In this document: positions 4,881 through 31,210 of the stretch, in pieces
Layout: every line of letters starts with the position of its first letter
Position numbering within the stretch: position 1 is the stretch's first letter
Assembly (NCBI GenBank): GCA_020056305.1
Contig: JAGVIA010000034.1
Span: 1 to 32,000 of the forward strand
Direction of reading: 5' to 3'
Length of the DNA: 32,000 nt
Source: an archaeon
GTDB lineage: Archaea; Micrarchaeota; Micrarchaeia; Anstonellales; Anstonellaceae
Notes under the pieces: generated by a model
The model's input: only the letters and a program-made list of their open reading frames with translations
The model's database searches: none
What the model was told of the DNA's origin: nothing
Made by a program: the position numbers and the translations under genes

Positions 4881-6370
4881 AGCCTCCTCTTCCGTGAAAC
4901 TTTTGATGCAAGTTTCCTGCCTTCCTCAATTAGAATCGTTTTTGTCGTGCGAAGCTTCTGGGTCATTGCAATCCCGCCATCCATCGCCCCTTTCTCAACA
5001 ACTTTGCGCGTGAAGTTCCAGCCTCCAAGCACCCCGTTTATTGCGCCCTGCGTTGGCGCAACGGCAAAGAGCTGTATTATCATCGCCCGGTCGCCCATCT
5101 TGTTCTCGATATTCGTGCCATGCGAAAGCTTCGGCGCAAATGCAAGCACTGCAAGCAGGCGCGAGATGCCAGAAAGCAGGAAAATTAGCATTATTCCGCT
5201 AAATCCGAAAAGCATGGCGTTTGGGAAATAAACAAGGAACAGCCCGCCGGATATTGCGCCTGCGGCATAGAAGAAGCCGTTGAACGCATTGTATTTGGAG
5301 ATGAATGAGGGCCGAAGCTCACGCCCGACAAGCGCAAGGGCGTAATTGAATGATGCAAGGTCAAACCCCGCCCACACAAAGCCTGAGAATGCTGAGAATA
5401 TCATAATCCACACCTGGTCTGTGGAGGTAAGCCACAAAAGCGGCACAAAAGGCGTCATGAATGATGATGCCACGAGAACTGCGCGGTTGCCAAGCCTGTC
5501 GGCCGCCTTGCCCCAATAGGGGAATGCGACTATTTTCACAATAATTGTGGTTGCGGATATGATTCCTACGAGCCCGATGTCAAAGTGCAGGCTGTTTAGC
5601 ATATACGGCATGAAAAAGGGCGATGCAAACTGGGTTGTCGCGCTCACGAGTGCCATGAAAACAAGGAACCATAACTCATTCCTGTAAGCCGGAAGCAAAA
5701 ACAGGTGCTTGAGCTTGATTTCCCGGATAAGCTGCAATTCGTATTTCACGTCATAGAGCCTGTTGTGGAAATATGTCGCTGCAAGCCTTGAGAGGAATGC
5801 GGCAATAAACACCACTGCAAACGCAAATGCGGCGGCATATTGCAGCTCAAGCTGCCTAATTGCAATCCCTGCCCCGAATGTTGCTATGAAAAGCGACACC
5901 TGCATCAGGCTGTTTCTTGTTGCAAAAAATCCCGGGCGCTCATTATCCGGCACGATGTCGGATATCCAGCTGCTCCATGCCGGGTTTGAAAGCATCGTTA
6001 GTCCAACTCCTATGGAGAAGAAGAGTATCATCAGCGGGACTGAGAGCGGGCCTGGCCAAAACACCACTGCGGCAATCAAAATCCAGCAAATTGAATGGAG
6101 CAGCGAGCCTGAGACAACCATCTTTTTCCGGCTGCCATAGAACCGAAGAATATTTATGGAAAAGAACTGGGAAATCGCGCCAAAGAGCTGCGGAAGGGCT
6201 GCAAGCAAGCCGATTTGGAAGTTTGTTGCCCCTAGGGCGATTGCAGCGGCAGGGATGTATGTATCTCCGACTCCCACCATTGCCGAATAGCCGATGCCGT
6301 CAGCTATCGAGTTTTTCATTGCCGCATTGCGCTCATGCAGGCTGTGCGTGTCTTCGTCAGGATTTGGCAT
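4877..6370 (-). CDS. MFS-type transporter (497 aa) with ~90-aa soluble C-terminal tail
   Basis: There are about 12 hydrophobic segments in two halves. An MFS-like loop motif (RFYGSRKKMV) lies after TM2, followed by a basic hydrophilic tail. The substrate cannot be inferred. Confidence 0.7.
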   Translation of the reverse strand: MPNPDEDTHSLHERNAAMKNSIADGIGYSAMVGVGDTYIPAAAIALGATNFQIGLLAALPQLFGAISQFFSINILRFYGSRKKMVVSGSLLHSICWILIAAVVFWPGPLSVPLMILFFSIGVGLTMLSNPAWSSWISDIVPDNERPGFFATRNSLMQVSLFIATFGAGIAIRQLELQYAAAFAFAVVFIAAFLSRLAATYFHNRLYDVKYELQLIREIKLKHLFLLPAYRNELWFLVFMALVSATTQFASPFFMPYMLNSLHFDIGLVGIISATTIIVKIVAFPYWGKAADRLGNRAVLVASSFMTPFVPLLWLTSTDQVWIMIFSAFSGFVWAGFDLASFNYALALVGRELRPSFISKYNAFNGFFYAAGAISGGLFLVYFPNAMLFGFSGIMLIFLLSGISRLLAVLAFAPKLSHGTNIENKMGDRAMIIQLFAVAPTQGAINGVLGGWNFTRKVVEKGAMDGGIAMTQKLRTTKTILIEEGRKLASKVSRKRRL

Positions 6371-6483
6371 ATGGGTCGCTTTGCCACTTGCCCAGCCAAT
6401 CCTTATAAGAATTTAGAAGAGGGAAACAAGCCTACTCGAAAATGGGTAAGGCATTATAATAGCTGCCCGCCCCTTATCTCCAC

Positions 6484-7182
6484 ATGAAAAACATCCCAGC
6501 CGCGCTTGCGGCTCTAAGGAAAGGCGGCGCAGTAGTGCTATTTGACGATTCAGGCAGGGAGGCTGAGGCAGACCTGCTCTTCCACGCGAGCGCTGCAACG
6601 CCAAAAAAGATAGCAATGCTTCGCAAGGATGCAGGAGGGCTCGTGTGCCTTGCGACAAGCGGCAAGGTTGCACAGGCACTGGACTTGCCTTTCATGGCAG
6701 ATGTTCTTGCAACGTCTCAAAACAGCGCCGCCTCAAGCCTTGCAATTGCCAAAACGCCCTATGGTGACAAGCCGGCATTCTCGATTTCCATTAACAGCAG
6801 AAAAACATACACTGGCATAACTGACGAGGACAGGGCGCGCACGATAAAGGAGTTTGCGGACTTCATCTGCGGCATGGAATTTGGCAGGAAGCAATTCGCA
6901 AAGCAATTCTACTCGCCTGGGCATGTGAACCTGCTGATAAGCTCGGGGCTGAAGAACAGGCGAGGGCACACAGAATTGTCTGTCGGGCTTGCGCTTCTTG
7001 CAGGCATGCCGCCCTCAGTAGTGCTCTGCGAGATGCTGGGCGAGGGGAAAGCACTGCCCATGAAAAAAGCAAAAGAATATGCAAAAAGAAAAAAGCTGCC
7101 TTTTCTCACTGGCAAAGATGTAATTGAAGCATTTGGCAGTATTTCCTGCGGGCCAGGCTGCAGGTGCACGTGCAAAAAATAG
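6484..7182 (+). CDS. ribB: 3,4-dihydroxy-2-butanone-4-phosphate synthase
   Basis: LRKGGAVVLFDDSGREAEADLLFHASAATPKKIAMLRKDAGGLVCLA, ...GHVNLL... and RRGHTELSV are the hallmark RibB motifs. The C-terminal tail is unusual (SCGPGCRCTCKK). Confidence 0.9.
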   Translation: MKNIPAALAALRKGGAVVLFDDSGREAEADLLFHASAATPKKIAMLRKDAGGLVCLATSGKVAQALDLPFMADVLATSQNSAASSLAIAKTPYGDKPAFSISINSRKTYTGITDEDRARTIKEFADFICGMEFGRKQFAKQFYSPGHVNLLISSGLKNRRGHTELSVGLALLAGMPPSVVLCEMLGEGKALPMKKAKEYAKRKKLPFLTGKDVIEAFGSISCGPGCRCTCKK

Positions 7183-11134: not shown

Positions 11135-11188
11135 AACTAATCACCTTCATTTTTGTTATTCTCTTTACATTATGTATATTAATAAACG
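11132..11188. repeat. copy 1 of a ~57-bp A/T-rich promoter/5'-leader block (functional copy, drives the ACT gene)
   Basis: CATAACTAATCACCTTCATTTTTGTTATTCTCTTTACATTATGTATATTAATAAACG. Read on the minus strand it gives a TATA-like TTATTAATATAC, then AGAATAACAAAAATGAAGGTGATTAGTT-ATG (ACT gene start). It matches 11661-11721 at about 75-80% by eye. Confidence 0.6.
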
Positions 11189-11215
11189 TTCCTAGAAATG
11201 CAGTAGGTGATTTTC

Positions 11216-11665
11216 ATGATTGCACAAGGAGTGGTATTGCCAGCACAGACTTCCACGCCGGCCGCAAGGAGGATGGAAGCTGGAATCCAGTTGCAAGGGC
11301 ATCGGGGAAGGATAGGCGACTTGATGGAACAGCTTCGGTTGCAGCTATTGCGCGGGGAAGCAAACCCCTATACTTTATCTGCATTGCGCATTGAAGCCGG
11401 CCATATGGATACCTTGCTGCGTGAGCTTGGCCAGCCACAGGGCAGCCAGAATGGCGCAAGGCAGCAGAATGTGGGTTCTGCTGCCGACCATTGGGACGAA
11501 CCCCTTGAAGAGCCTGCCGTACATCGGCAAACAGAGGAATTTCCGCTGGGAAGAATAGTTAGCGTAGACGGGACTGTCAGGTCGGTAACCTCTGTCGCTT
11601 CCATGTATCAGCATCTTGCAGGGCCACTTAGCGAAGGGGCATTAGACGTCCCTCTGACCTGCTAA
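11216..11665 (+). CDS. hypothetical protein (149 aa), no recognisable family
   Basis: The ORF is uninterrupted. A GGTGA SD lies 6 nt upstream of the ATG at 11216 (the track starts at a GTG at 11207). I recognise no motif. The ORF is bracketed by the two copies of the promoter block. Caveat: this genome produces many long antisense shadow ORFs. Confidence 0.35.
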   Translation: MIAQGVVLPAQTSTPAARRMEAGIQLQGHRGRIGDLMEQLRLQLLRGEANPYTLSALRIEAGHMDTLLRELGQPQGSQNGARQQNVGSAADHWDEPLEEPAVHRQTEEFPLGRIVSVDGTVRSVTSVASMYQHLAGPLSEGALDVPLTC

Positions 11666-11721
11666 TAACAAATCCTCCATTTTTTGTTATTCTACTAACA
11701 TAGCGTATATTAATTAAAAAG
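11661..11721. repeat. copy 2 of the ~57-bp promoter/5'-leader block (decayed: ATG position reads ATT)
   Basis: GCTAATAACAAATCCTCCATTTTTTGTTATTCTACTAACATAGCGTATATTAATTAAAAAG. On the minus strand it reads TTAATTAATATAC...AGAATAACAAAAAATGGAGGATTTGTT-ATT. The position equivalent to the ACT-gene ATG is ATT, and stops follow within about 12 codons. Confidence 0.55.
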
Positions 11722-11804
11722 AGCCGAAAAACAGTATCAAAAACGCTATAGCAAACCCGGATAGTTTTTTGGCATGGAGCTTGTGATGCCGCAGCGGGTT
11801 TCAG

Positions 11805-11888
11805 CATCGAGCTTTGCTCGATGACTGATGCATTTTGCTTGAGGCAAAATGCACATGCTACATGCTTGTCCGCGAAATATTCGCGGAC
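11805..11888 (+). promoter_or_regulatory. three consecutive perfect hairpins/palindromes immediately upstream of the lysW SD
   Basis: P1 at 11805-11823 is CATCGAGC-TTT-GCTCGATG (8 bp). P2 at 11829-11853 is TGCATTTTGC-TTGAG-GCAAAATGCA (10 bp). P3 at 11868-11888 is GTCCGCGAA-ATA-TTCGCGGAC (9 bp). The SD GGAGGAT lies at 11898-11904 and the lysW ATG at 11912. No U-tracts follow the stems. Confidence 0.5.
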
Positions 11889-11911
11889 TGCTATAATGGA
11901 GGATGGTTCAA

Positions 11912-17170: not shown

Positions 17171-17653
17171 CTAGTCGTGCTTTAGGAATTGCTGCACCAT
17201 GAATTCCTTGCCAGGGCCAGCTTTTTTCAGAAGCGCAAGCACGTCGTTTGCAGAAGACACTTCTTCAAGCTGCTCAGCTACAAACCACTGCATGAACTGC
17301 TCGGAAATCTTGTCTTTTTCGCCCCTTGCGGCATCCACTATGTTGCAAATAAGCTCTGTTACTTTTTCCTCGTGCGTTAGCGCTGCTTGTGCCGCTTCAA
17401 CGCCGGTTGAATAAACGGCTTTTGGCGCAGGAATGGCGGGTATTTTCACATCTGCGCCGGCATCCGAGAGGAACTTTATCATCTTCTGGCCGTGCACCTT
17501 CTCCTCATCCGCCTGCTTGTAGTAATAGTCTGCGAATATCTTGAGCCCCTCGCTGTCGAAATATGCGGCAATCGCATAATAGGAGGACATCGCAAAAAAC
17601 TCATGCCCTATCTGCTCGTTAATAAGCTGGTGCGTTTTCTTCCCGATAAGCAT
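17171..17653 (-). CDS. ftn: ferritin (non-haem, Ftn type)
   Basis: LINEQIGHEFFAMSSYYAIAAYF...ADEEKVHGQKMIKFL...HEEKVTE...FMQWFVAEQLEE are the ferroxidase-centre E/H ligand motifs. The start is set at the ATG at 17651-17653 behind AGGTGG (the track's start is 6 codons further up). Confidence 0.85.
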   Translation of the reverse strand: MLIGKKTHQLINEQIGHEFFAMSSYYAIAAYFDSEGLKIFADYYYKQADEEKVHGQKMIKFLSDAGADVKIPAIPAPKAVYSTGVEAAQAALTHEEKVTELICNIVDAARGEKDKISEQFMQWFVAEQLEEVSSANDVLALLKKAGPGKEFMVQQFLKHD

Positions 17654-17734
17654 CCAAACCACCTCTGGCATTTGCTAATTGCACGGTGAATTTAATAAGA
17701 GTATGGCGGCGTTATGCACGGGCGGGGCAAGATG

Positions 17735-19081
17735 CTAAGCCCGCACCGGGATAGGCTGGCGCATTGGCATTTTCACAAGCGCTGCCTCCTGTGACAGCTT
17801 TCTTCCGGGCGGAAGCCTTGTCTGAAAGTCCGGTGGAACCGAGCCGATAAGCCGTGGCGCATTTATTTTAAATTGCGGGTTGAATGACACATCCCCGTTG
17901 CTGCCAACCTCGCCTTTCATCGCAGCCTGCAGCCGGGCGTTTATCGCCCTAAGCTCCATTGCTTTTTCGCGAAGCTCTCGGATGTCAGACTCTGATACAA
18001 ACTCATCTGCATACGCGCCCATCGATGCACCCGTGAATTCGTTTGCCCGCATGCGCTGGTAAAGGGCTTTCAGTTTTGCAAACGCTTCCCTGCCCTTCTG
18101 CGTTCCGATTTCAAAGCGCTCATTATTGTCCTCTGTTATGCCCCCGTCAACAAGCACCAGGCCTGCCGCATTTCCAGTCATTATCATCATGTCGCAATTA
18201 CGGATTTCCTGCGTCGTGAAAACGCCCCTCCTTGTTTTATAGCCCAATTCCTGTGCAGCTATCTCTGCAAGCTGCATCGTGAGGCCAGGAAGCGCGCCAT
18301 CTTCAATTCTCGGCGTAATGAGCGTGTTGCCTTTGAGGATGGCTATGTTTTCTGCAGAGCCTTCTACGGGATAACCATTGAGGTTTTTCCAGACAACTTC
18401 GTTTAGCCGTGCATAAAAATCTGCATTGCCTGGGTCTGTCCCAATCAGCCTCTCGCGCAGCGCAATCATCTTGCGCACCGCGCGCATTGATGACGGGTAA
18501 TTCTCGCCTAACTTCCTCTCCGGATGCTCGACTTTCTTCCGCTCAGAAAGAAAAAGGACTACCATCCCCTTTCCAGTGTCATTCTTGCCGTGATACGGGA
18601 CCTGGGGGAATGCGATAAGGGTGTATTGAAATGGGTACAAATTGCGGAGCACAATGTTCCTTGCAGGCCCAAGGTACATGAGCGGCCGGATGTAAAGCCC
18701 GTTGCATACGTGCACACTGCCGTCTTCCGCAAGGATGCGCATTTTTTGGTCAAATCCGTTCATGTAAATTACGTTTGCAAGCGCAAGCATGTGCTCCTCA
18801 AGGGGCATCTGCGGGTAGCCATATAAGGAATTTTCAGCGTTGAAAATCATGCGCCGGAAGTTGAGGTCCATATGATAACTGAAGGTCCTTCCGTTTGCTG
18901 TTCTGTCAACGCCGCCGCCCTCGAATATGCTCACGCCATAATTTATGGATTTGGAGCTGAAATCCACTCCAGATGAACCCACTGTTGAAAACGAGTATGT
19001 TGGATTTGATTCGCTTCCGACCAAGCAATTTGCATGGAATATGATGATGTCACTGAATTTCTCTGGGTAAATGAATTCCAT
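17735..19081 (-). CDS. class IV (BCAT/DAAT-fold) aminotransferase-like protein with ~100-aa C-terminal extension
   Basis: YGVSIFEGGG (compare HYG..vFEG), YIRPL, and ERKLGENYPSSMRAV (compare the K-x-G-x-NY PLP-lysine segment of IlvE). The start is set at MEFIYPEKF behind a GGAGG SD. The last ~100 aa (ELRAINARLQAAMKGE...PPGRKLSQEAALVKMPMRQPIPVRA) have no family I recognise. Confidence 0.55.
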   Translation of the reverse strand: MEFIYPEKFSDIIIFHANCLVGSESNPTYSFSTVGSSGVDFSSKSINYGVSIFEGGGVDRTANGRTFSYHMDLNFRRMIFNAENSLYGYPQMPLEEHMLALANVIYMNGFDQKMRILAEDGSVHVCNGLYIRPLMYLGPARNIVLRNLYPFQYTLIAFPQVPYHGKNDTGKGMVVLFLSERKKVEHPERKLGENYPSSMRAVRKMIALRERLIGTDPGNADFYARLNEVVWKNLNGYPVEGSAENIAILKGNTLITPRIEDGALPGLTMQLAEIAAQELGYKTRRGVFTTQEIRNCDMMIMTGNAAGLVLVDGGITEDNNERFEIGTQKGREAFAKLKALYQRMRANEFTGASMGAYADEFVSESDIRELREKAMELRAINARLQAAMKGEVGSNGDVSFNPQFKINAPRLIGSVPPDFQTRLPPGRKLSQEAALVKMPMRQPIPVRA

Positions 19082-19210
19082 CCCATCGCCTCCCGTGTGC
19101 ATTTCTCCAATAAAGTATTTAACAGTGTCTTTGCATGTGAAAAACTACGTCCATTGCCGAATTTTGTTACATACTTTTTTAAATTAAAATCATCACAAGG
19201 AAAAACAGAA

Positions 19211-19292
19211 TGGAGGGATTGGAATGACCAACTCAAAGAGAGGTGAGTGCGCAAACAACGCTAGCAACGGGTGTTTGGAAATTATCCCTCCA
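19211..19292 (+). other. 82-nt element closed by a 9-bp helix (E0), directly downstream of a TATA-like box
   Basis: TGGAGGGAT (19211-19219) pairs with ATCCCTCCA (19284-19292). The A/T box TTTTTTAAATTAAAAT at 19175-19190 ends about 20-25 nt upstream, which is the archaeal TATA-to-TSS spacing. No credible ORF spans it. Confidence 0.3.
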
Positions 19293-19303
19293 GCAGTTCT
19301 CGG

Positions 19304-19406
19304 TCATAAGGTGCGGTGAACCCCGCGCAAAAGCGCGGGGCATGCCCCCCGCAGGCAAAGCTCATTCTTCACTAGGTGCAGTCACGGGCATGGCCGCACC
19401 TTATGA
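19304..19406 (+). promoter_or_regulatory. structured leader-like element E1 (three-way junction, 103 nt)
   Basis: P1 is TCATAAGGTGCGG (19304-16) paired with CCGCACCTTATGA (19394-406). The junction is TGAA. P2 is CCCCGCGC-AAAA-GCGCGGGG (19321-40). P3 is CATGCCC (19341-47) paired with GGGCATG (19386-92). AGGTG lies in the P3 loop (19374-78) and an ATG at 19390-92 lies inside the P3 3' strand. Confidence 0.5.
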
Positions 19407-19518
19407 GGCAACTAAAGTAGCTTCTTGCATAACTGACAAAACAAAAGGCGAGCGGAGCACAGAAAGAAAGGAAAAAAGCATAAGCCGCAAGACGAACAAC
19501 ACGGAAGTTAGCCGCCAG

Positions 19519-19770
19519 ATGGGCTATTTTTCCGTTTCCGGTTCAAGGAAAGGTTTTTTGCATCCGACGACTGGTTTTGGGGCTGCGGCAGCTGCAAGCT
19601 TTGCCTCTCCCTCAAAAATCGGAAGGCCTCGTGCATTGTCTCCTCAAGAAGCAGCAGAGGCGCGTGAAACTTACTTTTCGCAATTCGTCAGCGTGCGCGA
19701 GATTGCGCGCTATTACGGCGTTTCGCACTCGGCGGTATGGCGGGCGATATGGAACAAAAACAGGTCATAA
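19519..19770 (+). CDS. small helix-turn-helix DNA-binding protein (83 aa; possibly 126 aa from ATG 19390)
   Basis: The C-terminus GRPRALSPQEAAEARETYFSQFVSVREIARYYGVSHSAVWRAIWNK fits the Hin/resolvase-type or IS-ORFA-type HTH pattern (GRP..L......I.......S.REIA...GVS.STV.R.L). The N-terminal part of the 175-aa track ORF runs through E0/E1 and is not credible. The stop TAA (19768-70) lies inside the E2 closing helix. Confidence 0.5.
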   Translation: MGYFSVSGSRKGFLHPTTGFGAAAAASFASPSKIGRPRALSPQEAAEARETYFSQFVSVREIARYYGVSHSAVWRAIWNKNRS

Positions 19771-19853
19771 GGTGCGGCGAACCCTGCCTTCGGCAGGGCA
19801 TGTCGCGCTGACAGATATGGAACTGGTAGGTGCGACATGACCGCACCTTATGA
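19765..19853 (+). promoter_or_regulatory. structured leader-like element E2 (paralogue of E1, 89 nt)
   Basis: P1 is identical to that of E1 (19765-77 paired with 19841-53). The junction is CGAA. P2 is CCCTGC(C)-TTCG-GCAGGG (19782-98). P3 is CATGTCGC (19799-806) paired with GCGACATG (19832-39). AGGTG lies at 19828-32 and an ATG at 19837-39. An AGGTGA SD (19853-58) follows the helix, 4 nt before the ATG at 19863. Confidence 0.5.
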
Positions 19854-19862
19854 GGTGAAAAT

Positions 19863-20063
19863 ATGCCAGGTGGATTGAGCAGAATGATGGGCGAGATGCA
19901 GGCAAAACAAGAGGTTCGAAAACAGATCCCATTCGGGCTTGACAGGCTTGCCGTTCTCCCTAGATTCAAAAATGGCGAGCCATCTGGTGGCGTTGCGGCA
20001 GCATTTTTCAGGGACAAGCCGCCTTCGGATTATGTGTATACAAAGCGCGACGGGCTTGTCTGA
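19863..20063 (+). CDS. hypothetical small protein (66 aa)
   Basis: A strong SD (AGGTGA) lies 4 nt upstream. The protein is MPGGLSRMMGEMQAKQEVRKQIPFGLDRLAVLPRFKNGEPSGGVAAAFFRDKPPSDYVYTKRDGLV. It has no TM segment and no motif I recognise. Confidence 0.4.
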   Translation: MPGGLSRMMGEMQAKQEVRKQIPFGLDRLAVLPRFKNGEPSGGVAAAFFRDKPPSDYVYTKRDGLV

Positions 20064-22881: not shown

Positions 22882-22979
22882 CAACAACTGCGGGTGCGCG
22901 GGCATCATTTTGCCCGTAAGAAGCGCATCCGCCTAAAGTCCATGTGCTTAGCACGTCGGGCTTTAGCCCGCAGTTGTTG
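22882..22979. ncRNA. 98-nt element closed by a perfect 13-bp helix (E3), candidate small structured RNA in the secF/purH divergent intergenic region
   Basis: CAACAACTGCGGG (22882-94) pairs with CCCGCAGTTGTTG (22967-79). Inner hairpins are CGGGCA-TCATTT-TGCCCG (22899-916) and AAGCGCAT...ATGTGCTT (22921-28 with 22942-49, one G-U). The competing hairpin CGGGC-TTTA-GCCCG (22957-70) overlaps the 3' closing strand. A/T boxes at 22843-22861 lie about 20-35 nt upstream on the plus strand. Confidence 0.3.
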
Positions 22980-25062: not shown

Positions 25063-28011
25063 TCACGCTCCAGTTGCAATGCAAAAGTTATTGTTGCACC
25101 GTGCCAACGATCCGCAATCAGCATGTATCGTGCACGGCAGTCTGCATGCGTCAGTATTCGTGGCGGAATCATGGTGACAGATTAGGGGTGCGGGGCAATC
25201 AGCGGGCCCTGCGCATGGCCTGACGCAGTTCGAGTCTTGGTTTATGTATTGAGCATTGCAAGGATGTGGCGGAGTGCCGAAAACCCTCATGGGGTAATAT
25301 GCGCATCTCATCGTGCCAGCATAATTCGCGCATACCCCGTTGCAGCAGTCCGAATTGCCACTGCACGTTCCAGGGAAAGACTTGCATTTTGTGCAGCCAT
25401 TGTTCCATCCACAGACGCCCGATGCGCACTCGCTGCTCCATTCACCTGGATTCGTACATGCGGGTGCCGCAGGGGTTACTCCAGAGAACGTGACGAGTCC
25501 GGCAGGATTGCACACAGTGCATTCCGCATAAGGCATGGAACTAATGCTGTATTCCACATCCAGGTTGAAGCCCATGCCGCCGCGGCAGAAATCCCCCGCA
25601 TCGATCTGTATGGTATTGACTGCTCCAAATCCATGATTCACATATGGGGTGATGTCATAAGGTCCGATGTAACAGTTTTGGCATAATGGCCCCCTGCCGC
25701 AGCTGTCAAATACGCGTAGCTGGTCATTTACATATACTCCGCCATAGTCGTCTACATTGATGTTCTTCAGCTTGACAGTCGTAAGCCTTATGGTTGGTGC
25801 GCTCGTTATTGTGAATTTGTATGCAGCATATGGCGCCCATGCTGTACCTCCCCAAACGTGAGTGGTTGTTGTGCAACAGCCGCATGTTCCTGCGTTGCAA
25901 ACATAAATAGATGGAACGCAGCAGTCGCTATTCCCGTTCGGGCAGCCACCGCCGCTTCCGGAACAGCAATTCAATGCAAACGTCGCAAGGTTGTTCGCCT
26001 CGCTGATTTCATTCTGTATCACATTTGGGTTGTCAGCATTCGCCCGTATTGTCTTCGGGCCGGGCGTTGTGCAGACTGCTAAAACTCCGGTGTTTGGCGC
26101 AGATGCGCCTGCCGCAAGCGCCACAACGGAGATAGGATAGCTTGCCTGCAAGTTGAAAGTCATCCCAGAGCTTGCCGAATCAACAAGTGTGGTGGATGCA
26201 GGCGCACCGCCATCCCCATCATTGGACGTTCCGACATTCAGGGCAAACGCATTCCCAACTACTTGGGTGGAGCTAGGCAGCGGCCCCACAAAACTTGCAA
26301 CCATGTCTGGCATTGCAGGCTCAATACATTCGAATGATGCGCTCCAATCCGCGTTGTTCCCCTCGTTTTCTTCAACATTATTCTCAGATGAATCGGCAAT
26401 AAGGCTCAATGTGTAGCTTCCTGCGGTGCTTGGGCACCTGACAGCATAAATCCATCCGCCGTCATCCCCACCTGCGGGTATTTCCATGTTCACAAAATGG
26501 TTCGCCTGCGTCTCTCCGTCCAGCAGCACGCCCGTATAGGACGGTTCCGATGCGCCATATCCGATGTTTCGCGTGTAAATAGTAGCTTCAAATTCCGAAT
26601 TCACTTCATGTTGGATGCTAAAATCCCCGGTTGCGTCTGCCACAAGGTCGGGCTGCGTTGTCAGAATGCATTCGAACGGGTATGCCTGGATGTTGTTTGC
26701 CTCGTTGCCCCCCTCATTCACCCGATCAACCCCGCCTGCATTTGCAGTAATCGTTAGTTCATGCGGCCCGGCATCTCCGCACTGCATTCTAACTTGTTGT
26801 GCAAACGACTCTGGGGACGGCAGCTCCTGCACGGTGAAGGGATTTTCAAGCACATCATCATTGCTATCAAGCAATTCGACCGGCATTCCATCAACATCTA
26901 TGCGCGTTTGCGACGGCCCTGCATCGCCCGGGCCATTGTTGCGTGTCAGAATCGTAATTTCAAAAAGTGAGCCGGCAGGATGCCCTCCGACCACGTCCCC
27001 TTGCAAATATGCCTCGAGGTCAGGGAATAGCTGCGGTGGCATCTCACACACACCCTCCAAATTGCAAACATAGCCAATGCAGCAGTCATGATCATTCTGG
27101 CAGTCGATGTCGCTGCCAGGAAGTATGCAGCAGAATTCATTTCCGTTTGCATCAGATTCGCAAGCCTGCCCGCCGCAGCATTTGTTGGCTTCTGGGTCAG
27201 GGTCGCAGGGATTCCGCGCAGACAAGCAAGATTGGCACGTGCCCAACACTGCATCGCAAACCAGCGTGCCCGAAGGGCAGCAGTCCGGACTATCTGGGTC
27301 ACATTCATAGTCGATGCCCCCGTATGGCACGCACTGCCCGTAATCCTGCAAATTCTCATCTGTTTGGCATGCAGTGCAGGAAGAAACAAAGCAGTCGCAA
27401 TCAGGGCAATAGTTGTCAGAATTCCAGTCGCACGTCTCTCCATAGTCGCACTGTCTGTTTCCGCAGTGCTCGCAAATATTGTTCAGGCAGACCTTGGGAG
27501 TGCAGCATATCCCCTCCCCGCAGGCAGCGCACCCTTCCTGCTCCTGCGCACTGCACCTTCCAAACAGATTCACAGTTCCTGTTTCAGTGCGCTCTGCGCC
27601 ATCGATGCCAAGATAGGTTATTGTGACCTGATGCTCATAATTGCCGCCGGGCTGGCAGGGCAGCCCGGTGTCAAAGACAAGAGTCTTGCGGCTGCCGGGC
27701 GCAAACAGCTCGCCAGTTGGCCCTCCAGACACAAGATTTGCCTGCTTTCCGTCAAGCGCCATTGATTTGAAGCGCAATCTGTCCTCTCCAGTGTTCTGCA
27801 AAACAGCAACAAAGCCGCCTGCAGGCGTTTTGGTGTGCTCCAGCATGCCAAACGGGTTTGCGTTGCCTTTCCAGTACGTGTCGCTGTGCGTGTATTTTGT
27901 TTCCGCACTAAGCCCCGGCACGTCAAGGAGCGCACCTGCGACGGCAAGCACAATGATAAGCACAACTGCAAGGAGAATGGTATATTCAGTTGCCGTCACG
28001 CCGCGCATCAT
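25063..28011 (-). CDS. giant secreted cysteine-rich protein A (982 aa): class III/prepilin-like signal + pilin-like N-domain + knottin-like Cys modules + 3 CARDB-like domains + PA14-like beta domain + C-terminal Cys modules
   Basis: The N-terminus is MMRG|VTATEYTILLAVVLIIVLAVAG (basic-Gly, Glu at +5, hydrophobic helix). Residues 34-152 are homologous to protein B. I hand-counted 74 Cys. C-C-CC-C-C units lie at aa 227-259, 262-294, 295-322, 683-710 and 876-903. CGNRQCDYGETCDWNSDNYCPDC lies at aa 183-205. CARDB-like units start at PDLEAYL (330), PDLVADA (454) and PDMVASF (568), each ending ..N.(V/I).E..E.NN. At aa ~715-830, YKFTITS...NVDDYGGVYVNDQLRVFD resembles PA14. Confidence 0.85.
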   Translation of the reverse strand: MMRGVTATEYTILLAVVLIIVLAVAGALLDVPGLSAETKYTHSDTYWKGNANPFGMLEHTKTPAGGFVAVLQNTGEDRLRFKSMALDGKQANLVSGGPTGELFAPGSRKTLVFDTGLPCQPGGNYEHQVTITYLGIDGAERTETGTVNLFGRCSAQEQEGCAACGEGICCTPKVCLNNICEHCGNRQCDYGETCDWNSDNYCPDCDCFVSSCTACQTDENLQDYGQCVPYGGIDYECDPDSPDCCPSGTLVCDAVLGTCQSCLSARNPCDPDPEANKCCGGQACESDANGNEFCCILPGSDIDCQNDHDCCIGYVCNLEGVCEMPPQLFPDLEAYLQGDVVGGHPAGSLFEITILTRNNGPGDAGPSQTRIDVDGMPVELLDSNDDVLENPFTVQELPSPESFAQQVRMQCGDAGPHELTITANAGGVDRVNEGGNEANNIQAYPFECILTTQPDLVADATGDFSIQHEVNSEFEATIYTRNIGYGASEPSYTGVLLDGETQANHFVNMEIPAGGDDGGWIYAVRCPSTAGSYTLSLIADSSENNVEENEGNNADWSASFECIEPAMPDMVASFVGPLPSSTQVVGNAFALNVGTSNDGDGGAPASTTLVDSASSGMTFNLQASYPISVVALAAGASAPNTGVLAVCTTPGPKTIRANADNPNVIQNEISEANNLATFALNCCSGSGGGCPNGNSDCCVPSIYVCNAGTCGCCTTTTHVWGGTAWAPYAAYKFTITSAPTIRLTTVKLKNINVDDYGGVYVNDQLRVFDSCGRGPLCQNCYIGPYDITPYVNHGFGAVNTIQIDAGDFCRGGMGFNLDVEYSISSMPYAECTVCNPAGLVTFSGVTPAAPACTNPGEWSSECASGVCGWNNGCTKCKSFPGTCSGNSDCCNGVCANYAGTMRCAYYPMRVFGTPPHPCNAQYINQDSNCVRPCAGPADCPAPLICHHDSATNTDACRLPCTIHADCGSLARCNNNFCIATGA

Positions 28012-28032
28012 CAGTTAGGCTTCAAAAACAAA

Positions 28033-28040
28033 GTTTATAA
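28033..28040 (-). promoter_or_regulatory. TATA box of protein A gene (TTATAAAC on minus strand)
   Basis: It lies 22 nt upstream of the first ATG (28011) with no SD in between, which implies a leaderless or very short leader mRNA. The same box and spacer are duplicated upstream of protein B. Confidence 0.55.
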
Positions 28041-28160
28041 GGAAAATGGCACTGCACTTGCGCGGGCTCTTTTCCTCCAGCAGTGTTCTTATCTGAAAAA
28101 TATCGGCGCGGGGCGCAATGTCCTGCTAAAAAAATTGCCTTGATGCGTGGGCTGTTGACC

Positions 28161-31058
28161 CTATTGCCCCGTTATTACCAAGGTTGGGACATAGCGGTCC
28201 GTAGTGGTGCCATCCCCAAGCTGGCTATAGTCATTTTGTCCCCAGCATAACGCCTTATCGTCTTCCCGTATGGCACACGTATGATGACCTCCGGCGCTTA
28301 TGGCAGTATATGTGTCGTCCCCGGCAATGGGCGTGGGCACCAGCCTGTCCGTGCCAGATGTGTCATCCCCAATCTGGCCGTTGGAATTGTATCCCCAGCA
28401 TAAGACCTTGCCGTCTTCCCGTATGCCGCACACATGTTCACTTCCGGCTCTTATGGCAGTATATGTGTCGTCCCCGGCAATGAGCGTGGGCGTCAAACGA
28501 GCAAAACGGTTGCCATCACCAAGCTCGCCATAGTTGTTGTATCCCCAGCATAAGACCTTGCCGTCTTCCCGTATGCCGCACGTATGCAATGCTCCGGCGC
28601 TTATGGCAGTATATGTGTCGTCCCCGGCAATGAGCGTGGGCGTCAAATGATCAACACGGGTGCCATCGCCCAGCGCGCCAGCGTCATTTAATCCCCAGCA
28701 TAAGACCTTGCCGTCCGAAGCGCGCATACCACATGTATGCTGATATCCGGCGCTTATGGCAGTATATGTGTCGTCCCCGGCAATGAGCGTGGGCACCAGC
28801 CTGTTCGTGCCAGATGTGCCATCACCAATCTGGCCGGCATGATTGTCTCCCCAGCATAAGACCTTGCCGTCTTCCCGTATGCCGCACGTATGATAACTTC
28901 CGGTGCTTATGGCAGTATATGTATAGTCCCCGGCAATGAGCGTGGGCGTCAATTTATGGACAGTGGTGCCATCACCAATCTGGCCGGCGCCATTTAATCC
29001 CCAGCATAAGACCTTGCCGTCTTCCCGTATGCCGCACGTATGATAACCTCCGGCGCTTATTTCACTATACGCTGCACTGCATTGCTGGTTTGAATTGCAG
29101 AAGAAATAGGAGCAGCACTCATTGCCTGTTGGGCAGGATGCGCCCTCTTCTGTTAGGCAGAGTGTGCATGCAGGAGAGCCTTCACTGAGATCGCACCAGT
29201 AACCGTCGCAGCATATATCACCACCACAGGAGATGGGGTTGCAGTCCTGCGCGCAGTTCGCGCAGCTCTCGCCAGAATCACAGATTTCATTGCCGCAGGC
29301 GGATGCCATGTCCATGCATAGGAACGACTCGTCCACCAAAGACCATGCACAAATCAGCCCCTGCTCCGCGCAGCAGTTTGCCGAGTTGCCATCTTCACAG
29401 CTGATGCCCTGCCCTTTGCAGTTGCTTATGATATTCCAAGGTGCGCGGTTGTTTCCTGTGTTTGGTTCGGGCACCACGCTAGCGCCGTCGGCATAATTGA
29501 CATATGCAACAAGCGCAACCTCTTCTGTTGCACCGGAAACTGACGGGCATGTTGTTTCGACATCCCAGCTCAATGATTCGCCCGGCCTAATGACGTCGAA
29601 GGGGGAGAGTTCGCGCATGGACATCTCAGTGCCCTCCGCATCAATCCTGAGGAGGCGAACAGGATAGTGAAACCCATCCCGGTTGAAAATGCCAGTCCCT
29701 ATGTTTGTTGCGGTTATTGTCATGATGATGGGATCACCGGAAAAGCATGAGACTGTACCTAAAAGAGAAACCTCAAGGTCAGGCGTGCCGCCCTCGCAGA
29801 GGTGGGATATTACATTGCATATCATGCCTTGTCCCGGGCAGCAGGGGTGGCCGACATTGCACGAATTGCCTTCGAGCCCGCAATCACCACCGGCGGGGGG
29901 AAGGAATGGCGGAGCGCATTTTTGGCCTAAGTCATCGACATCCAGGCACGTCATGCCAGGATATCCGCAGCATTGCGCGGGCAAATCGCACGCGGCGCCC
30001 TGCACCGTGCAGATCTGGCACTTGTTGGTATCACGATTGCAGGAAAATCCAGTGGTCTCGCTGCAGCAGTCGTTATCATTTGCGCAGTCGCCGCCCGGTG
30101 CAGATGGGCATGCTGCGCATCGCCTGATGGGACTGTTGGAATTGCAAATGAGGCTGCCGCAGCAGTCGTTATTGCCTCCACAGCTATTGCCTGCCGCTTT
30201 GCAGCAGAGCGCAGGTTCGCCCTCGCTCTTGCTTTCGCACCTGCCAGTGCAGCAGCTTATAGGGTTGCTGATGCTGCAGGACTCCCCGAGCAGCAAACAA
30301 ATATCAATCTCTGCCGTACAGGTCTCGCCTTCGTAACAGTCCAATCCTTCGCAGCAGTTTCCATCCGCGTCGCATTCCTGCCCCTGCGCCGGCAAGGTGT
30401 CGCATGTTCCGGTTAGCGTATTGCACGACTGGCATGCCTCCACGCAGCAGTCATTTGTCGCGGCAGGGCAGGCATCGCAAAGCTCGTCGCAGATGCCGTT
30501 GCCGCACGTCGTGCAGAAGAAGCCATTTTCATCTTCCCCGCAGACATTCGGGGTGCAGCAAGTCACGCCGCCCCCGCATCGCAGGCATCCTTCCGGAACC
30601 TCTGCCAAGCACTGCCCATAAATGGGCACGCCACCGGTCTGGGTGTGCGGCGTCCCCTGCGCATCCTGATAGCCAAACACCACGCTGTGTTCGTAGTAGG
30701 TGCTTCCCGGCGGGCATATGCTGGCATCTGTCAAAGAGAGCGCTTTCCTGCTGCCCGGCGCAAGAAGCACGCCATCGCCCGAAATGGCAAGGCGCTCGCC
30801 ATCAAGGCGTATCTCAGTGACCTTTATCCTGCCAGTGCCCGTGTTCTGGAGCACGCCTGTGAAAACGCCCGGCGCCTCCGTATGCTCGAGCAGGGCAACC
30901 GGATCCGCATCGTTTTTCCAGTACGAGTTGCTCTGCGCGTATTTTGTATCAGAAGCAATTCCCGGCACGTCAAGGAGCGCACCTGCGACGGCAAGCACAA
31001 TCACGAGAACAACTGCAAGAAGGATGGTATATTCAGTGGAAGTTACGCCGCGCATCAT
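28161..31058 (-). CDS. giant secreted cysteine-rich protein B (965 aa): class III/prepilin-like signal + pilin-like N-domain + >=8 knottin-like Cys modules + 1 CARDB-like domain + six RCC1 repeats
   Basis: The N-terminus is MMRG|VTSTEYTILLAVVLVIVLAVAG. I hand-counted 88 Cys. C-C-CC-C-C units lie at aa 219-247, 254-285, 286-314, 317-347, 350-381, 393-421, 547-581 and 634-660. CGNGICDELCDAC lies at 185 and CGNEICDSGESCANCAQDC at 588. The CARDB-like domain covers aa ~425-547. In aa 664-965 the unit (Y/H)HTCGIREDGKVLCWG.N..GQ(I/L)GDGT......PT.I is repeated six times, which is the RCC1/BLIP-II blade signature. Confidence 0.85.
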   Translation of the reverse strand: MMRGVTSTEYTILLAVVLVIVLAVAGALLDVPGIASDTKYAQSNSYWKNDADPVALLEHTEAPGVFTGVLQNTGTGRIKVTEIRLDGERLAISGDGVLLAPGSRKALSLTDASICPPGSTYYEHSVVFGYQDAQGTPHTQTGGVPIYGQCLAEVPEGCLRCGGGVTCCTPNVCGEDENGFFCTTCGNGICDELCDACPAATNDCCVEACQSCNTLTGTCDTLPAQGQECDADGNCCEGLDCYEGETCTAEIDICLLLGESCSISNPISCCTGRCESKSEGEPALCCKAAGNSCGGNNDCCGSLICNSNSPIRRCAACPSAPGGDCANDNDCCSETTGFSCNRDTNKCQICTVQGAACDLPAQCCGYPGMTCLDVDDLGQKCAPPFLPPAGGDCGLEGNSCNVGHPCCPGQGMICNVISHLCEGGTPDLEVSLLGTVSCFSGDPIIMTITATNIGTGIFNRDGFHYPVRLLRIDAEGTEMSMRELSPFDVIRPGESLSWDVETTCPSVSGATEEVALVAYVNYADGASVVPEPNTGNNRAPWNIISNCKGQGISCEDGNSANCCAEQGLICAWSLVDESFLCMDMASACGNEICDSGESCANCAQDCNPISCGGDICCDGYWCDLSEGSPACTLCLTEEGASCPTGNECCSYFFCNSNQQCSAAYSEISAGGYHTCGIREDGKVLCWGLNGAGQIGDGTTVHKLTPTLIAGDYTYTAISTGSYHTCGIREDGKVLCWGDNHAGQIGDGTSGTNRLVPTLIAGDDTYTAISAGYQHTCGMRASDGKVLCWGLNDAGALGDGTRVDHLTPTLIAGDDTYTAISAGALHTCGIREDGKVLCWGYNNYGELGDGNRFARLTPTLIAGDDTYTAIRAGSEHVCGIREDGKVLCWGYNSNGQIGDDTSGTDRLVPTPIAGDDTYTAISAGGHHTCAIREDDKALCWGQNDYSQLGDGTTTDRYVPTLVITGQ
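28164..29069 (-). repeat. six tandem ~150-153-nt intragenic repeats encoding the RCC1 blades
   Basis: The anchor string CCGG(C/T)(G/T)CTTATGGCAGTATATGT recurs on the plus strand at 28291, 28444, 28594, 28747 and 28900, with a degenerate copy at 29050 (spacing 150 or 153 nt). Long identical stretches such as CCCCAGCATAAGACCTTGCCGTCTTCCCGTATGCCGCAC occur in several units. Confidence 0.85.
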
Positions 31059-31079
31059 CAGTTAGGCTTCAAAAAGAAA

Positions 31080-31087
31080 GTTTATAA
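31080..31087 (-). promoter_or_regulatory. TATA box of protein B gene (TTATAAAC on minus strand)
   Basis: The position (22 nt from the ATG at 31058) and flanks (CAGTTAGGCTTCAAAAA.AAAGTTTATAA) are the same as upstream of protein A. Confidence 0.55.
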
Positions 31088-31210
31088 AGCGAATGCCGGC
31101 ATGTTTGGGTTGAGGCGCCAAAAGCGTGTTCCGGGCGTCGCTTGGGGCAAACGCATGCAACATACTCTTTTTTATATGTTCTATAACTCATTATACTTCA
31201 GGTGTTTTCT

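Follow-up and report, generated by a model that had tools for sequence, protein, structure and literature searches.

Two compensated three-way-junction elements flanking a helix-turn-helix gene in an Anstonellaceae archaeon: a candidate insertion-element family of Micrarchaeota

Contig JAGVIA010000034.1 of an Anstonellaceae archaeon (assembly GCA_020056305.1) carries, within the 32,000-nt stretch analysed here (the window), a small helix-turn-helix (HTH) gene flanked by two structured elements, E1 and E2, which lie 460 bp apart in the same orientation and are followed by a 66-aa open reading frame (ORF), ORF66. The surroundings are those of an ordinary Micrarchaeota chromosome: the window encodes LeuRS, riboflavin genes, a LysW/LysX amino-acid pathway, a ferritin, a long class-IV aminotransferase, SecD, SecF, PurH and two large surface proteins. 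The best relatives of its SecD, 60-65% identical, come from Anstonellaceae and other Micrarchaeota metagenome-assembled genomes (MAGs). No transposase, integrase, reverse transcriptase or HUH gene was found in the 32 kb. The secD and lysK genes are immediate neighbours in Candidatus Anstonella and one further relative, while here positions 17171-20063, comprising the ferritin gene, the long aminotransferase gene and the E1-HTH-E2-ORF66 unit, sit between lysK and secD (compared with loci L010 and L019). The segment is therefore a variable region and a hotspot of change in gene order.

The initial annotation had placed the start of a 126-aa version of the HTH protein at an ATG inside E1 and its TAA stop inside the E2 helix, and both placements are borne out by the sequence; the gene caller yields the same protein (Table 1). 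No close homologues of this protein were found in a word-indexed search. An exhaustive HMMER search matched only the C-terminal helix-turn-helix (residues ~70-125), which is of the type found in resolvases, invertases or the N termini of transposases, often within multi-HTH proteins. ORF66 has no family match and no similarity to the HTH homologue of the related genome (locus L011) described below. The idea that it is a decayed second HTH repeat was rejected, as no reading frame rose above shuffled sequences and, at the DNA level, the HTH 3' end is echoed only weakly.

E1 and E2 share one architecture, as first annotated, and both the sequence and unconstrained folding confirm it. An identical 13-bp closing helix leads into a YGAA junction, followed by two abutting hairpins, P2 and P3; the strand bearing YGAA sets the orientation. 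The left arm, TCATAAGGTGCGG, has exact matches on the + strand at 19304 and 19765, and its reverse complement stands at the right-hand end of each element, giving four exact arms in the window. At up to two mismatches the arm motif has six matches in the window against 0.71 expected, a number reached by none of the shuffles; the two 2-mismatch matches (11982 and 25655) fall within the genes of lysW and a large surface protein, each without a partner arm. Folded without constraint, E1 forms the three-way junction at -54.8 kcal/mol (z -5.4) and E2 at -55.6 kcal/mol (z -9.7), with 0 of 200 shuffles as good in either case. The complementary strands fold equally well. The ATG at 19837 in the P3 strand of E2 opens 13 codons, as had been described.

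Table 1. Positions of the elements, their parts and the associated features. Positions refer to the window unless a locus is named.
Feature	Position	Strand	Length	Remarks
E1	19304-19406	+	103 nt	covariance model 99.1 bits
E1 arms	19304-19316 and 19394-19406	+		
E1 junction	19317-19320	+		TGAA
E1 P2	19321-19340	+		
E1 P3	19341-19392	+		
E1 single base	19393	+		G
E2	19765-19853	+	89 nt	covariance model 86.7 bits
E2 arms	19765-19777 and 19841-19853	+		
E2 junction	19778-19781	+		CGAA
E2 P2	19782-19798	+		
E2 P3	19799-19839	+		
E2 single base	19840	+		A
HTH gene, resident	19390-19770	+	126 aa	from ATG inside E1; alternative start ATG 19519
HTH domain	~19621-19764	+		
HTH stop codon	19768-19770	+		TAA, inside E2 left arm
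ORF66	19863-20063	+	66 aa	downstream of E2; in frame with HTH ORF upon exact E2 removal
Interrupted site, left half	19752-19764	+		GAACAAAAACAGG; last codons of HTH ORF
Interrupted site, right half	19854-19865	+		GGTGAAAATATG; SD and ATG of ORF66
Segment 5' of E1	19173-19303	+	131 nt	TATA-like CTTTTTTAAATTAAAAT; SD GGAGGG; ATG 19224 (27 codons to E1)
Further copy	L002:963-1060			same ends, GAA junction, P3 abutting P2
Further copy	L003:2036-2119			same ends, GAA junction, P3 abutting P2
Further copy	L005:3230-3328			same ends, GAA junction, P3 abutting P2
E3	22882-22979	+	98 nt	closed multi-hairpin element between divergent secF and purH
SD, Shine-Dalgarno sequence.

Exact-arm scans of public collections, which copies with diverged arms would escape, recovered another three copies from other DNA of Micrarchaeota. 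These have identical 13-nt ends, and each adjoins unrelated genes (Table 1). The absence of further copies had been named as grounds for doubting the elements. The family is spread over at least four genomes in unrelated gene neighbourhoods. All five copies measure 84-103 nt, and none carries a conserved ORF of its own. Their terminal inverted repeats (TCATAAGGTGCGG ... CCGCACCTTATGA) are perfect over 13 bp, except that L003 lacks the outermost pair, and the junction is an invariant GAA after a pyrimidine in every copy; in L002, L003 and L005 the P2 hairpin has CC at its start and GG at its end. The interiors have diverged almost wholly between copies, leaving the ends unchanged. L002 belongs to a Micrarchaeota MAG, the same as that of locus L013, whose SecD is only 60% identical to that of the window, so the 13-nt ends do not vary between distantly related genomes. 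When a covariance model was built from the five copies, as had been suggested for E1 and E2, it found those five and nothing else in 186 kb of Micrarchaeota DNA. We conclude that the family is real, structurally constrained and rare.

The contexts of the three outside copies differ. In L003 the rpoF stop is a TAA within the left arm of the element; the next gene, of DUF655 type, follows ~90 nt downstream, beyond a TATA-like box. The L005 copy occupies a divergent intergenic region between a sugar kinase gene and an uncharacterised gene. In L002, also a divergent intergenic region, a membrane-protein gene on the opposite strand starts 2 bases from the element, and a gene for the small subunit of replication factor C follows ~100 nt downstream, again with a TATA-like box between element and gene. 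No promoter or terminator signal common to the copies, as would be expected of an independent RNA gene, was found.

Several other searches for relatives were negative. Matches in L001 (Candidatus Poribacteria), L004 (a tandem-repeat contig) and L006-L009 (viral contigs) lack the architecture and were rejected as members of the family. The chance match in L001 lies at 6200-6620 amid short palindromic repeats, GGTAGGTGCGGTTTCCTAACCGCACC and its variants, that resemble repetitive extragenic palindromic (REP) sequences and are unrelated to the Micrarchaeota elements. The element had no match in blastn searches against plasmids and phages, and the peptides that the conserved arms would encode had none in a protein search. 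[quoted passage not shown]

Compensatory changes in P2 and P3 had been reported between E1 and E2; they are real and extend to the three further copies. In the five-sequence alignment 96% of cells are paired, six pairs are changed on both sides and none on one side only; the pairing score is reached by 0 of 500 shuffles, and pairing falls to 33-46% when the alignment registers are slid. Among the pairs of the core helices (65 in the closing helix, 38 in P2 and 34 at the base of P3) there is no G-U pair, and the only two mismatches both belong to L003. Differences between copies in the interior helices are exclusively double changes from one Watson-Crick pair to another, and the summed folding energy of the five copies is equal for both strands. 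Every pair is of Watson-Crick type, every change is double and neither strand folds better than the other, which argues against RNA-type selection; selection appears to have acted on DNA rather than on the RNA of one strand. The end motif AGGTGCGG also recurs at up to one mismatch inside the interiors, four times against 0.42 expected (four was reached by 1 of 2000 shuffles), and AGGTGC, as found in the E1 and E2 P3 loops, is more aptly seen as one of its internal copies.

Strictly perfect Watson-Crick pairing, with all variation double, would also be expected of functionless hairpins made locally, for example by template switching during replication, their shared ends being due to descent or gene conversion; the window does hold other clusters of perfect hairpins (E3 and one upstream of lysW). 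Local mutation cannot, however, give identical 13-nt ends together with GAA in four genomes at unrelated loci, and further copies with the same ends at non-orthologous sites, which speak against a local origin, have already in part been found. Interiors that have diverged beside ends that have not imply selection on the ends, and we regard a purely local origin as decidedly improbable.

The initial annotation preferred to see in E1 and E2 a duplicated leader that embeds an SD-like motif and a start codon, perhaps autoregulated by the HTH protein. The evidence does not support this reading, although some of the local detail holds. Signals carried by the element are used by flanking genes at E1, E2, L003 and L005: the E1 ATG serves the HTH ORF, the upstream ORF ends at a TAA in the left arm at both E2 (HTH) and L003 (rpoF), and at E2 and L005 the last bases of the element complete the SD of the following ORF, placing GAGG 7-9 nt before the start codon. 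These signals are not conserved, however. The P3 ATG is replaced by CTG in L002 and by ATA in L003, and the AGGTGC motif is absent from both. The distance from element to start codon varies from 2 to ~100 nt, and the relation to the downstream start is different in every copy. On the question, raised with the annotation, whether copies always precede ORFs, all five are oriented with the next gene; distances, contexts and gene types vary. Autoregulation by the HTH protein finds no support, since no HTH gene was found near the copies outside the window (L002, L003 and L005) and the HTH homologue in L011 has no element. The suggested scan against Rfam shows no family that matches the elements: the window has no match at the gathering score, and permissive scans of the E1/E2 and E3 regions gave nothing above noise. 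An ARAGORN search for tRNAs was likewise negative.

A more general form of the same idea is a cis-acting mRNA module in which an AAGGUG/CACCUU closing helix stands beside an AUG and couples or gates downstream translation when it melts; heat, a protein, a ligand or a ribosome that terminates at the left-arm UAA would be the trigger. The very stable fold, the shared orientation of all five copies with the next downstream gene, and the stop codons and GAGG motifs just described would fit such a module, and internal AGGTGC-like motifs (E1, E2 and L003) could pair with the right arm in place of the left. Against it, the ATG and SD are not conserved, the downstream genes are unrelated, and the variable start distance includes TATA-like boxes between element and gene in L002 and L003. 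The junction leaves no pocket, its unpaired bases numbering 4, 0 and 1. Neither G-U pairs nor one-sided changes nor strand asymmetry, the marks of selection on RNA, are seen, no Rfam family matches, and E2 is an insertion relative to L011 (see below). We therefore consider this module unlikely, whatever its trigger, and local use of the ATG and SD looks like a consequence of insertion and not the purpose of the element.

The evidence that E2 is an insertion comes from L011. Its SecD is 63% identical to that of the window, and it shows the same order and orientation of SecD, an HTH gene on the opposite strand and an unusually long Aminotran_4 gene. The HTH homologue of L011 (5511-5711, minus strand) was found by tblastn at E 3e-9 and is 46% identical over 48 aa by blastp; its locus contains no element. 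The HTH gene of the window is thus a resident gene with an element-free homologue in a related genome. Eight other secD neighbourhoods yielded no further element, and an HTH homologue came from L011 only.

The sequence GAGGTGAAAATATG, a 14-mer made up of the last two bases of E2 and the SD and ATG of ORF66, occurs once in the window and once among the 19 loci compared, at the ribosome-binding site of the L011 HTH gene. When E2 is exactly deleted, the window reads GAACAAAAACAGGGGTGAAAATATG, which aligns without gaps to GAACAAACATAGAGGTGAAAATATG of L011 (5733-5709) at 22 of 25 positions (E 7e-5). In the unedited window the right-hand 14-mer is the sole part of this 25-nt stretch that matches. 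Because E2 splits a stretch that is contiguous in L011, we infer that it arrived by insertion; the ungapped alignment upon exact removal limits any target duplication to at most 2 nt. The 25-nt stretch lies before the HTH gene in L011 and after it in the window, an order that does not alter the former adjacency of its two halves. Upstream of the intact HTH gene, L011 (5736-5985, minus strand) holds weak collinear remnants of a second HTH-type unit, among them ATKIGK, matching SKIGRP of the window, and an in-frame ...WVNKHRGENM before the start. The switch in position of the stretch fits an ancestral tandem pair of HTH units, in view of these remnants of an upstream copy, and the comparison suggests that each genome may have kept a different member of that pair.

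The event at E1 is less clean. A 235-nt block absent from L011 consists of the 131-nt segment 5' of E1, E1 itself and one G. Without positions 19173-19407, the window matches L011 over 48 nt across the E1 junction (75% identical, E 2.4e-4). The right boundary of the block agrees with the end of E1 to within one base, and the left boundary is 131 nt upstream of the element, in a segment with its own TATA-like box, SD and ATG.

The reading frame is restored when E1 is removed exactly, and likewise when E2 is, giving one ORF with SD and ATG, and the 70 codons after E2 stay open. The two elements might on this account be intron-like, or be bypassed by the ribosome, with a single 216-aa protein, running from ATG 19224 to 20063, as the product. 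Both frames would fit by chance in about 1 of 9 cases, however, and upstream of E1 two of three frames are in any case open. The boundaries show no bulge-helix-bulge motif and no group I or group II features, and take-off and landing codons that match are absent. The homologue in L011 ends 6 codons past the E2 position without an extension, ORF66 has an SD and ATG of its own and no similarity to the L011 protein, and the other copies lie outside coding sequence. We find this account scarcely credible. The archaeal bulge-helix-bulge intron, with two 3-nt bulges and a 4-bp helix, was also rejected on structure, since each element begins and ends at the base of an unbroken 13-bp helix and its flanks lack complementarity. 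A broader variant, a new kind of archaeal intervening sequence that inserts without target duplication and is excised from the RNA, or passed over by the ribosome, exactly at the helix foot, is highly improbable; if true, the HTH gene would still yield one 216-aa protein (19224-19303, 19407-19764 and 19854-20063). Its less radical version, in which the elements would be substrates of an undescribed DPANN transposition system reading a folded single-stranded three-way junction, falls under the same low estimate.

With moderate confidence, we propose that E1 and E2 are copies of a rare 84-103-bp non-coding, MITE-like and structure-constrained insertion element of Micrarchaeota. A small palindromic mobile repeat family was the second choice of the initial annotation and now fits the evidence best. 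The element would move, or have moved, as DNA, probably in single-stranded, folded form, with a trans-supplied enzyme that reads the ends and the junction; invariant ends and junction, together with the internal end-like motifs, suggest recognition by a protein. Movement as a folded strand would explain the Watson-Crick pairing on both strands, the invariant ends, the lack of target duplication and the internal copies of the end motif. The lack of target duplication points away from DDE cut-and-paste transposition and towards enzymes that act on folded single strands or by conservative exchange, such as HUH, DEDD and serine or tyrosine recombinases. Genes interrupted by the element would then be patched by signals in its ends, which offer TAA on one side and, on the other, ATG/TGA with a G-rich exit. 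The HTH ORF may in this way have come to end at the TAA of the E2 left arm and to start at the ATG in the E1 P3 strand (MAAPYE...), and the last bases of E2 may, with GGTGA, have come to form the SD of ORF66.

A number of observations weigh against this proposal. A consistent target duplication, a defining feature of MITEs, is missing. The insertion evidence comes from one comparison genome and short alignments; the left boundary of the E1 block, 131 nt outside the element, is not that of a clean single-element insertion, and a deletion in L011, where the upstream copy has decayed, could also account for that block. Two copies 460 bp apart in one small locus would be unlikely under random insertion. 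MITE families are typically multi-copy; the window holds two copies in 32 kb, and the reference MAG holding L002, which was scanned whole, has a single exact-arm copy. No copy was seen in the secD surroundings of nine other Micrarchaeota (~170 kb), and no transposase, integrase or HUH gene was seen beside any copy. The common orientation of the five copies fits a role at the RNA level, a weak point given the few independent cases.

Mobile DNA of the DPANN archaea is poorly charted, and the element is absent from the literature found. Its combination of terminal inverted repeats that do not vary, a lack of target duplication, a very low copy number and a strictly compensated three-way junction is unusual and points to a mobilisation mechanism that reads structure. 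It also urges caution in RNA discovery, because a compensated fold with start and stop signals mimics a regulatory RNA where a DNA element to which the host has adapted fits better.

The window contains other hairpins and repeats. E3 (Table 1) has a perfect 13-bp closing helix of a sequence other than that of E1 and E2 (CAACAACTGCGGG / CCCGCAGTTGTTG), with TATA-like boxes ~30 nt upstream. It scores 13.1 bits (E ~0.03) against the E1/E2 covariance model, on the + strand only, and is a possible distant architectural relative. As E3 contains G-U pairs and its + strand is the more stable by 7.6 kcal/mol, it may, unlike E1 and E2, act as RNA. Upstream of lysW (11771-11890, + strand) lies a cluster of perfect hairpins (z ~-5.4 to -8), CATCGAGC/GCTCGATG, TGCATTTTGC/GCAAAATGCA and GTCCGCGAA/TTCGCGGAC; a GCATGGAGC/GCTaCATGC helix surrounds the first two. 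In other Micrarchaeota lysW is preceded by a short spacer only, so the cluster may represent a further insertion, or else a leader that responds to an amino acid. A 37-nt AT-rich promoter-like repeat (11150-11186 and 11681-11717, 81% identical) flanks an orphan 152-aa ORF (11207-11665) without a Pfam match, and is possibly a duplicated promoter or the mark of an inserted gene. Finally, the 225-nt 5' segments of two adjacent genes for ~970-aa proteins (27824-28048 and 30871-31095) are 82% identical, and one of these genes contains 150-nt tandem repeats (28200-29070) encoding RCC1 repeats. As far as checked, the two proteins are paralogous surface proteins and not part of a diversity-generating retroelement.

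Among known systems, structured 5' leaders resemble the elements in a stable helix that pairs an SD-like with an anti-SD-like strand beside an AUG. The elements differ from them in having no fixed relation to a start codon, no ligand pocket and no G-U pairs, in preceding unrelated genes and in having arrived by insertion. Several other structured classes were considered and set aside: hammerhead and other small ribozymes, whose junctions are not matched by strands of 4, 0 and 1 nt; retron msr/msd, for want of a reverse transcriptase; paired origin recognition boxes of replication origins, because the interior is GC-rich; and k-turns, k-junctions and 5S rRNA, on anatomy. The archaeal selenocysteine insertion sequence has a GAA/A-like junction, and was rejected because the elements have an extra helix, G as often as A, and no selenocysteine context.

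The attC sites of integrons are closer. As in attC, function would rest on a folded single strand with conserved outer parts and a paired interior of variable length (84-103 nt overall), the site stands directly 3' of small ORFs and same-orientation arrays are possible. Were E1 and E2 attC-like recombination sites bounding cassettes, E1-HTH-E2-ORF66 would be a short cassette array, and two same-orientation sites less than 4 kb apart around small orphan-like ORFs, a stop codon of the upstream ORF inside the site and a locus in a region variable between genomes would all fit. The core sites of attC read RYYYAAC ... GTTRRRY, a consensus that the element ends, TCATAAG... / ...CTTATGA, miss. An attC stem is imperfect, with extrahelical bases and an unpaired central spacer; the elements have a perfect 13-bp stem without extrahelical bases and a three-way junction, and no intI or other recombinase gene lies in the 32 kb. 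The site of E2 received the element alone, with no gene, and the HTH gene is resident and not a cassette. Archaeal integrons do exist, mostly as attC clusters lacking an integrase (PMC9668308), and a cluster is recognised by at least two sites within 4 kb and/or an adjacent intI (PMC9668308). E1 and E2, at 460 bp, fall within that distance, in a window without integrase, and the other three copies are solitary; we consider the attC-like interpretation quite improbable.

Palindrome-associated transposable elements (PATEs) derived from IS200/IS605, and REP/REPIN sequences, both linked to HUH enzymes of the Y1 type, share with our elements the lack of target duplication, selection on hairpins at the DNA level, a non-autonomous nature and hairpins ~14-17 nt inside each end. 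They lack the terminal inverted repeats present here and have two mutually similar hairpins, whereas here P2 and P3, unlike the two inverted copies of one short palindromic unit in REP/REPIN, are not complementary to each other, and no TnpA, TnpB or RAYT gene was seen. Nor is there the fixed 5' target tetra- or pentanucleotide of the IS200/IS605 type, the 5' flanks being CTCGG, ACAGG, CATGG, AGGAA and GTGAA.

Prokaryotic MITEs include the Correia/NEMIS elements of Neisseria and the Rickettsia palindromic elements (review PMC10969869). Like these, the elements described here are ~100 bp long and non-coding, with terminal inverted repeats and a stable stem-loop of the transcript or single strand; they occur at unrelated loci, between and inside genes, and may donate expression signals to their neighbours. 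They depart from MITEs in being GC-rich and not AT-rich, in numbering one or two copies per genome and not tens, and in combining highly diverged yet compensated interiors with ends that are invariant across genera. We know of no parent insertion sequence with the same ends. Target duplication is not consistent, the flanks being GG/GG at both E1 and E2 and GG/GT, AA/GG and AG/GA at the other copies. Although they thus fail one defining test of MITEs, in their overall behaviour the elements are most like MITEs or other small palindromic mobile elements.

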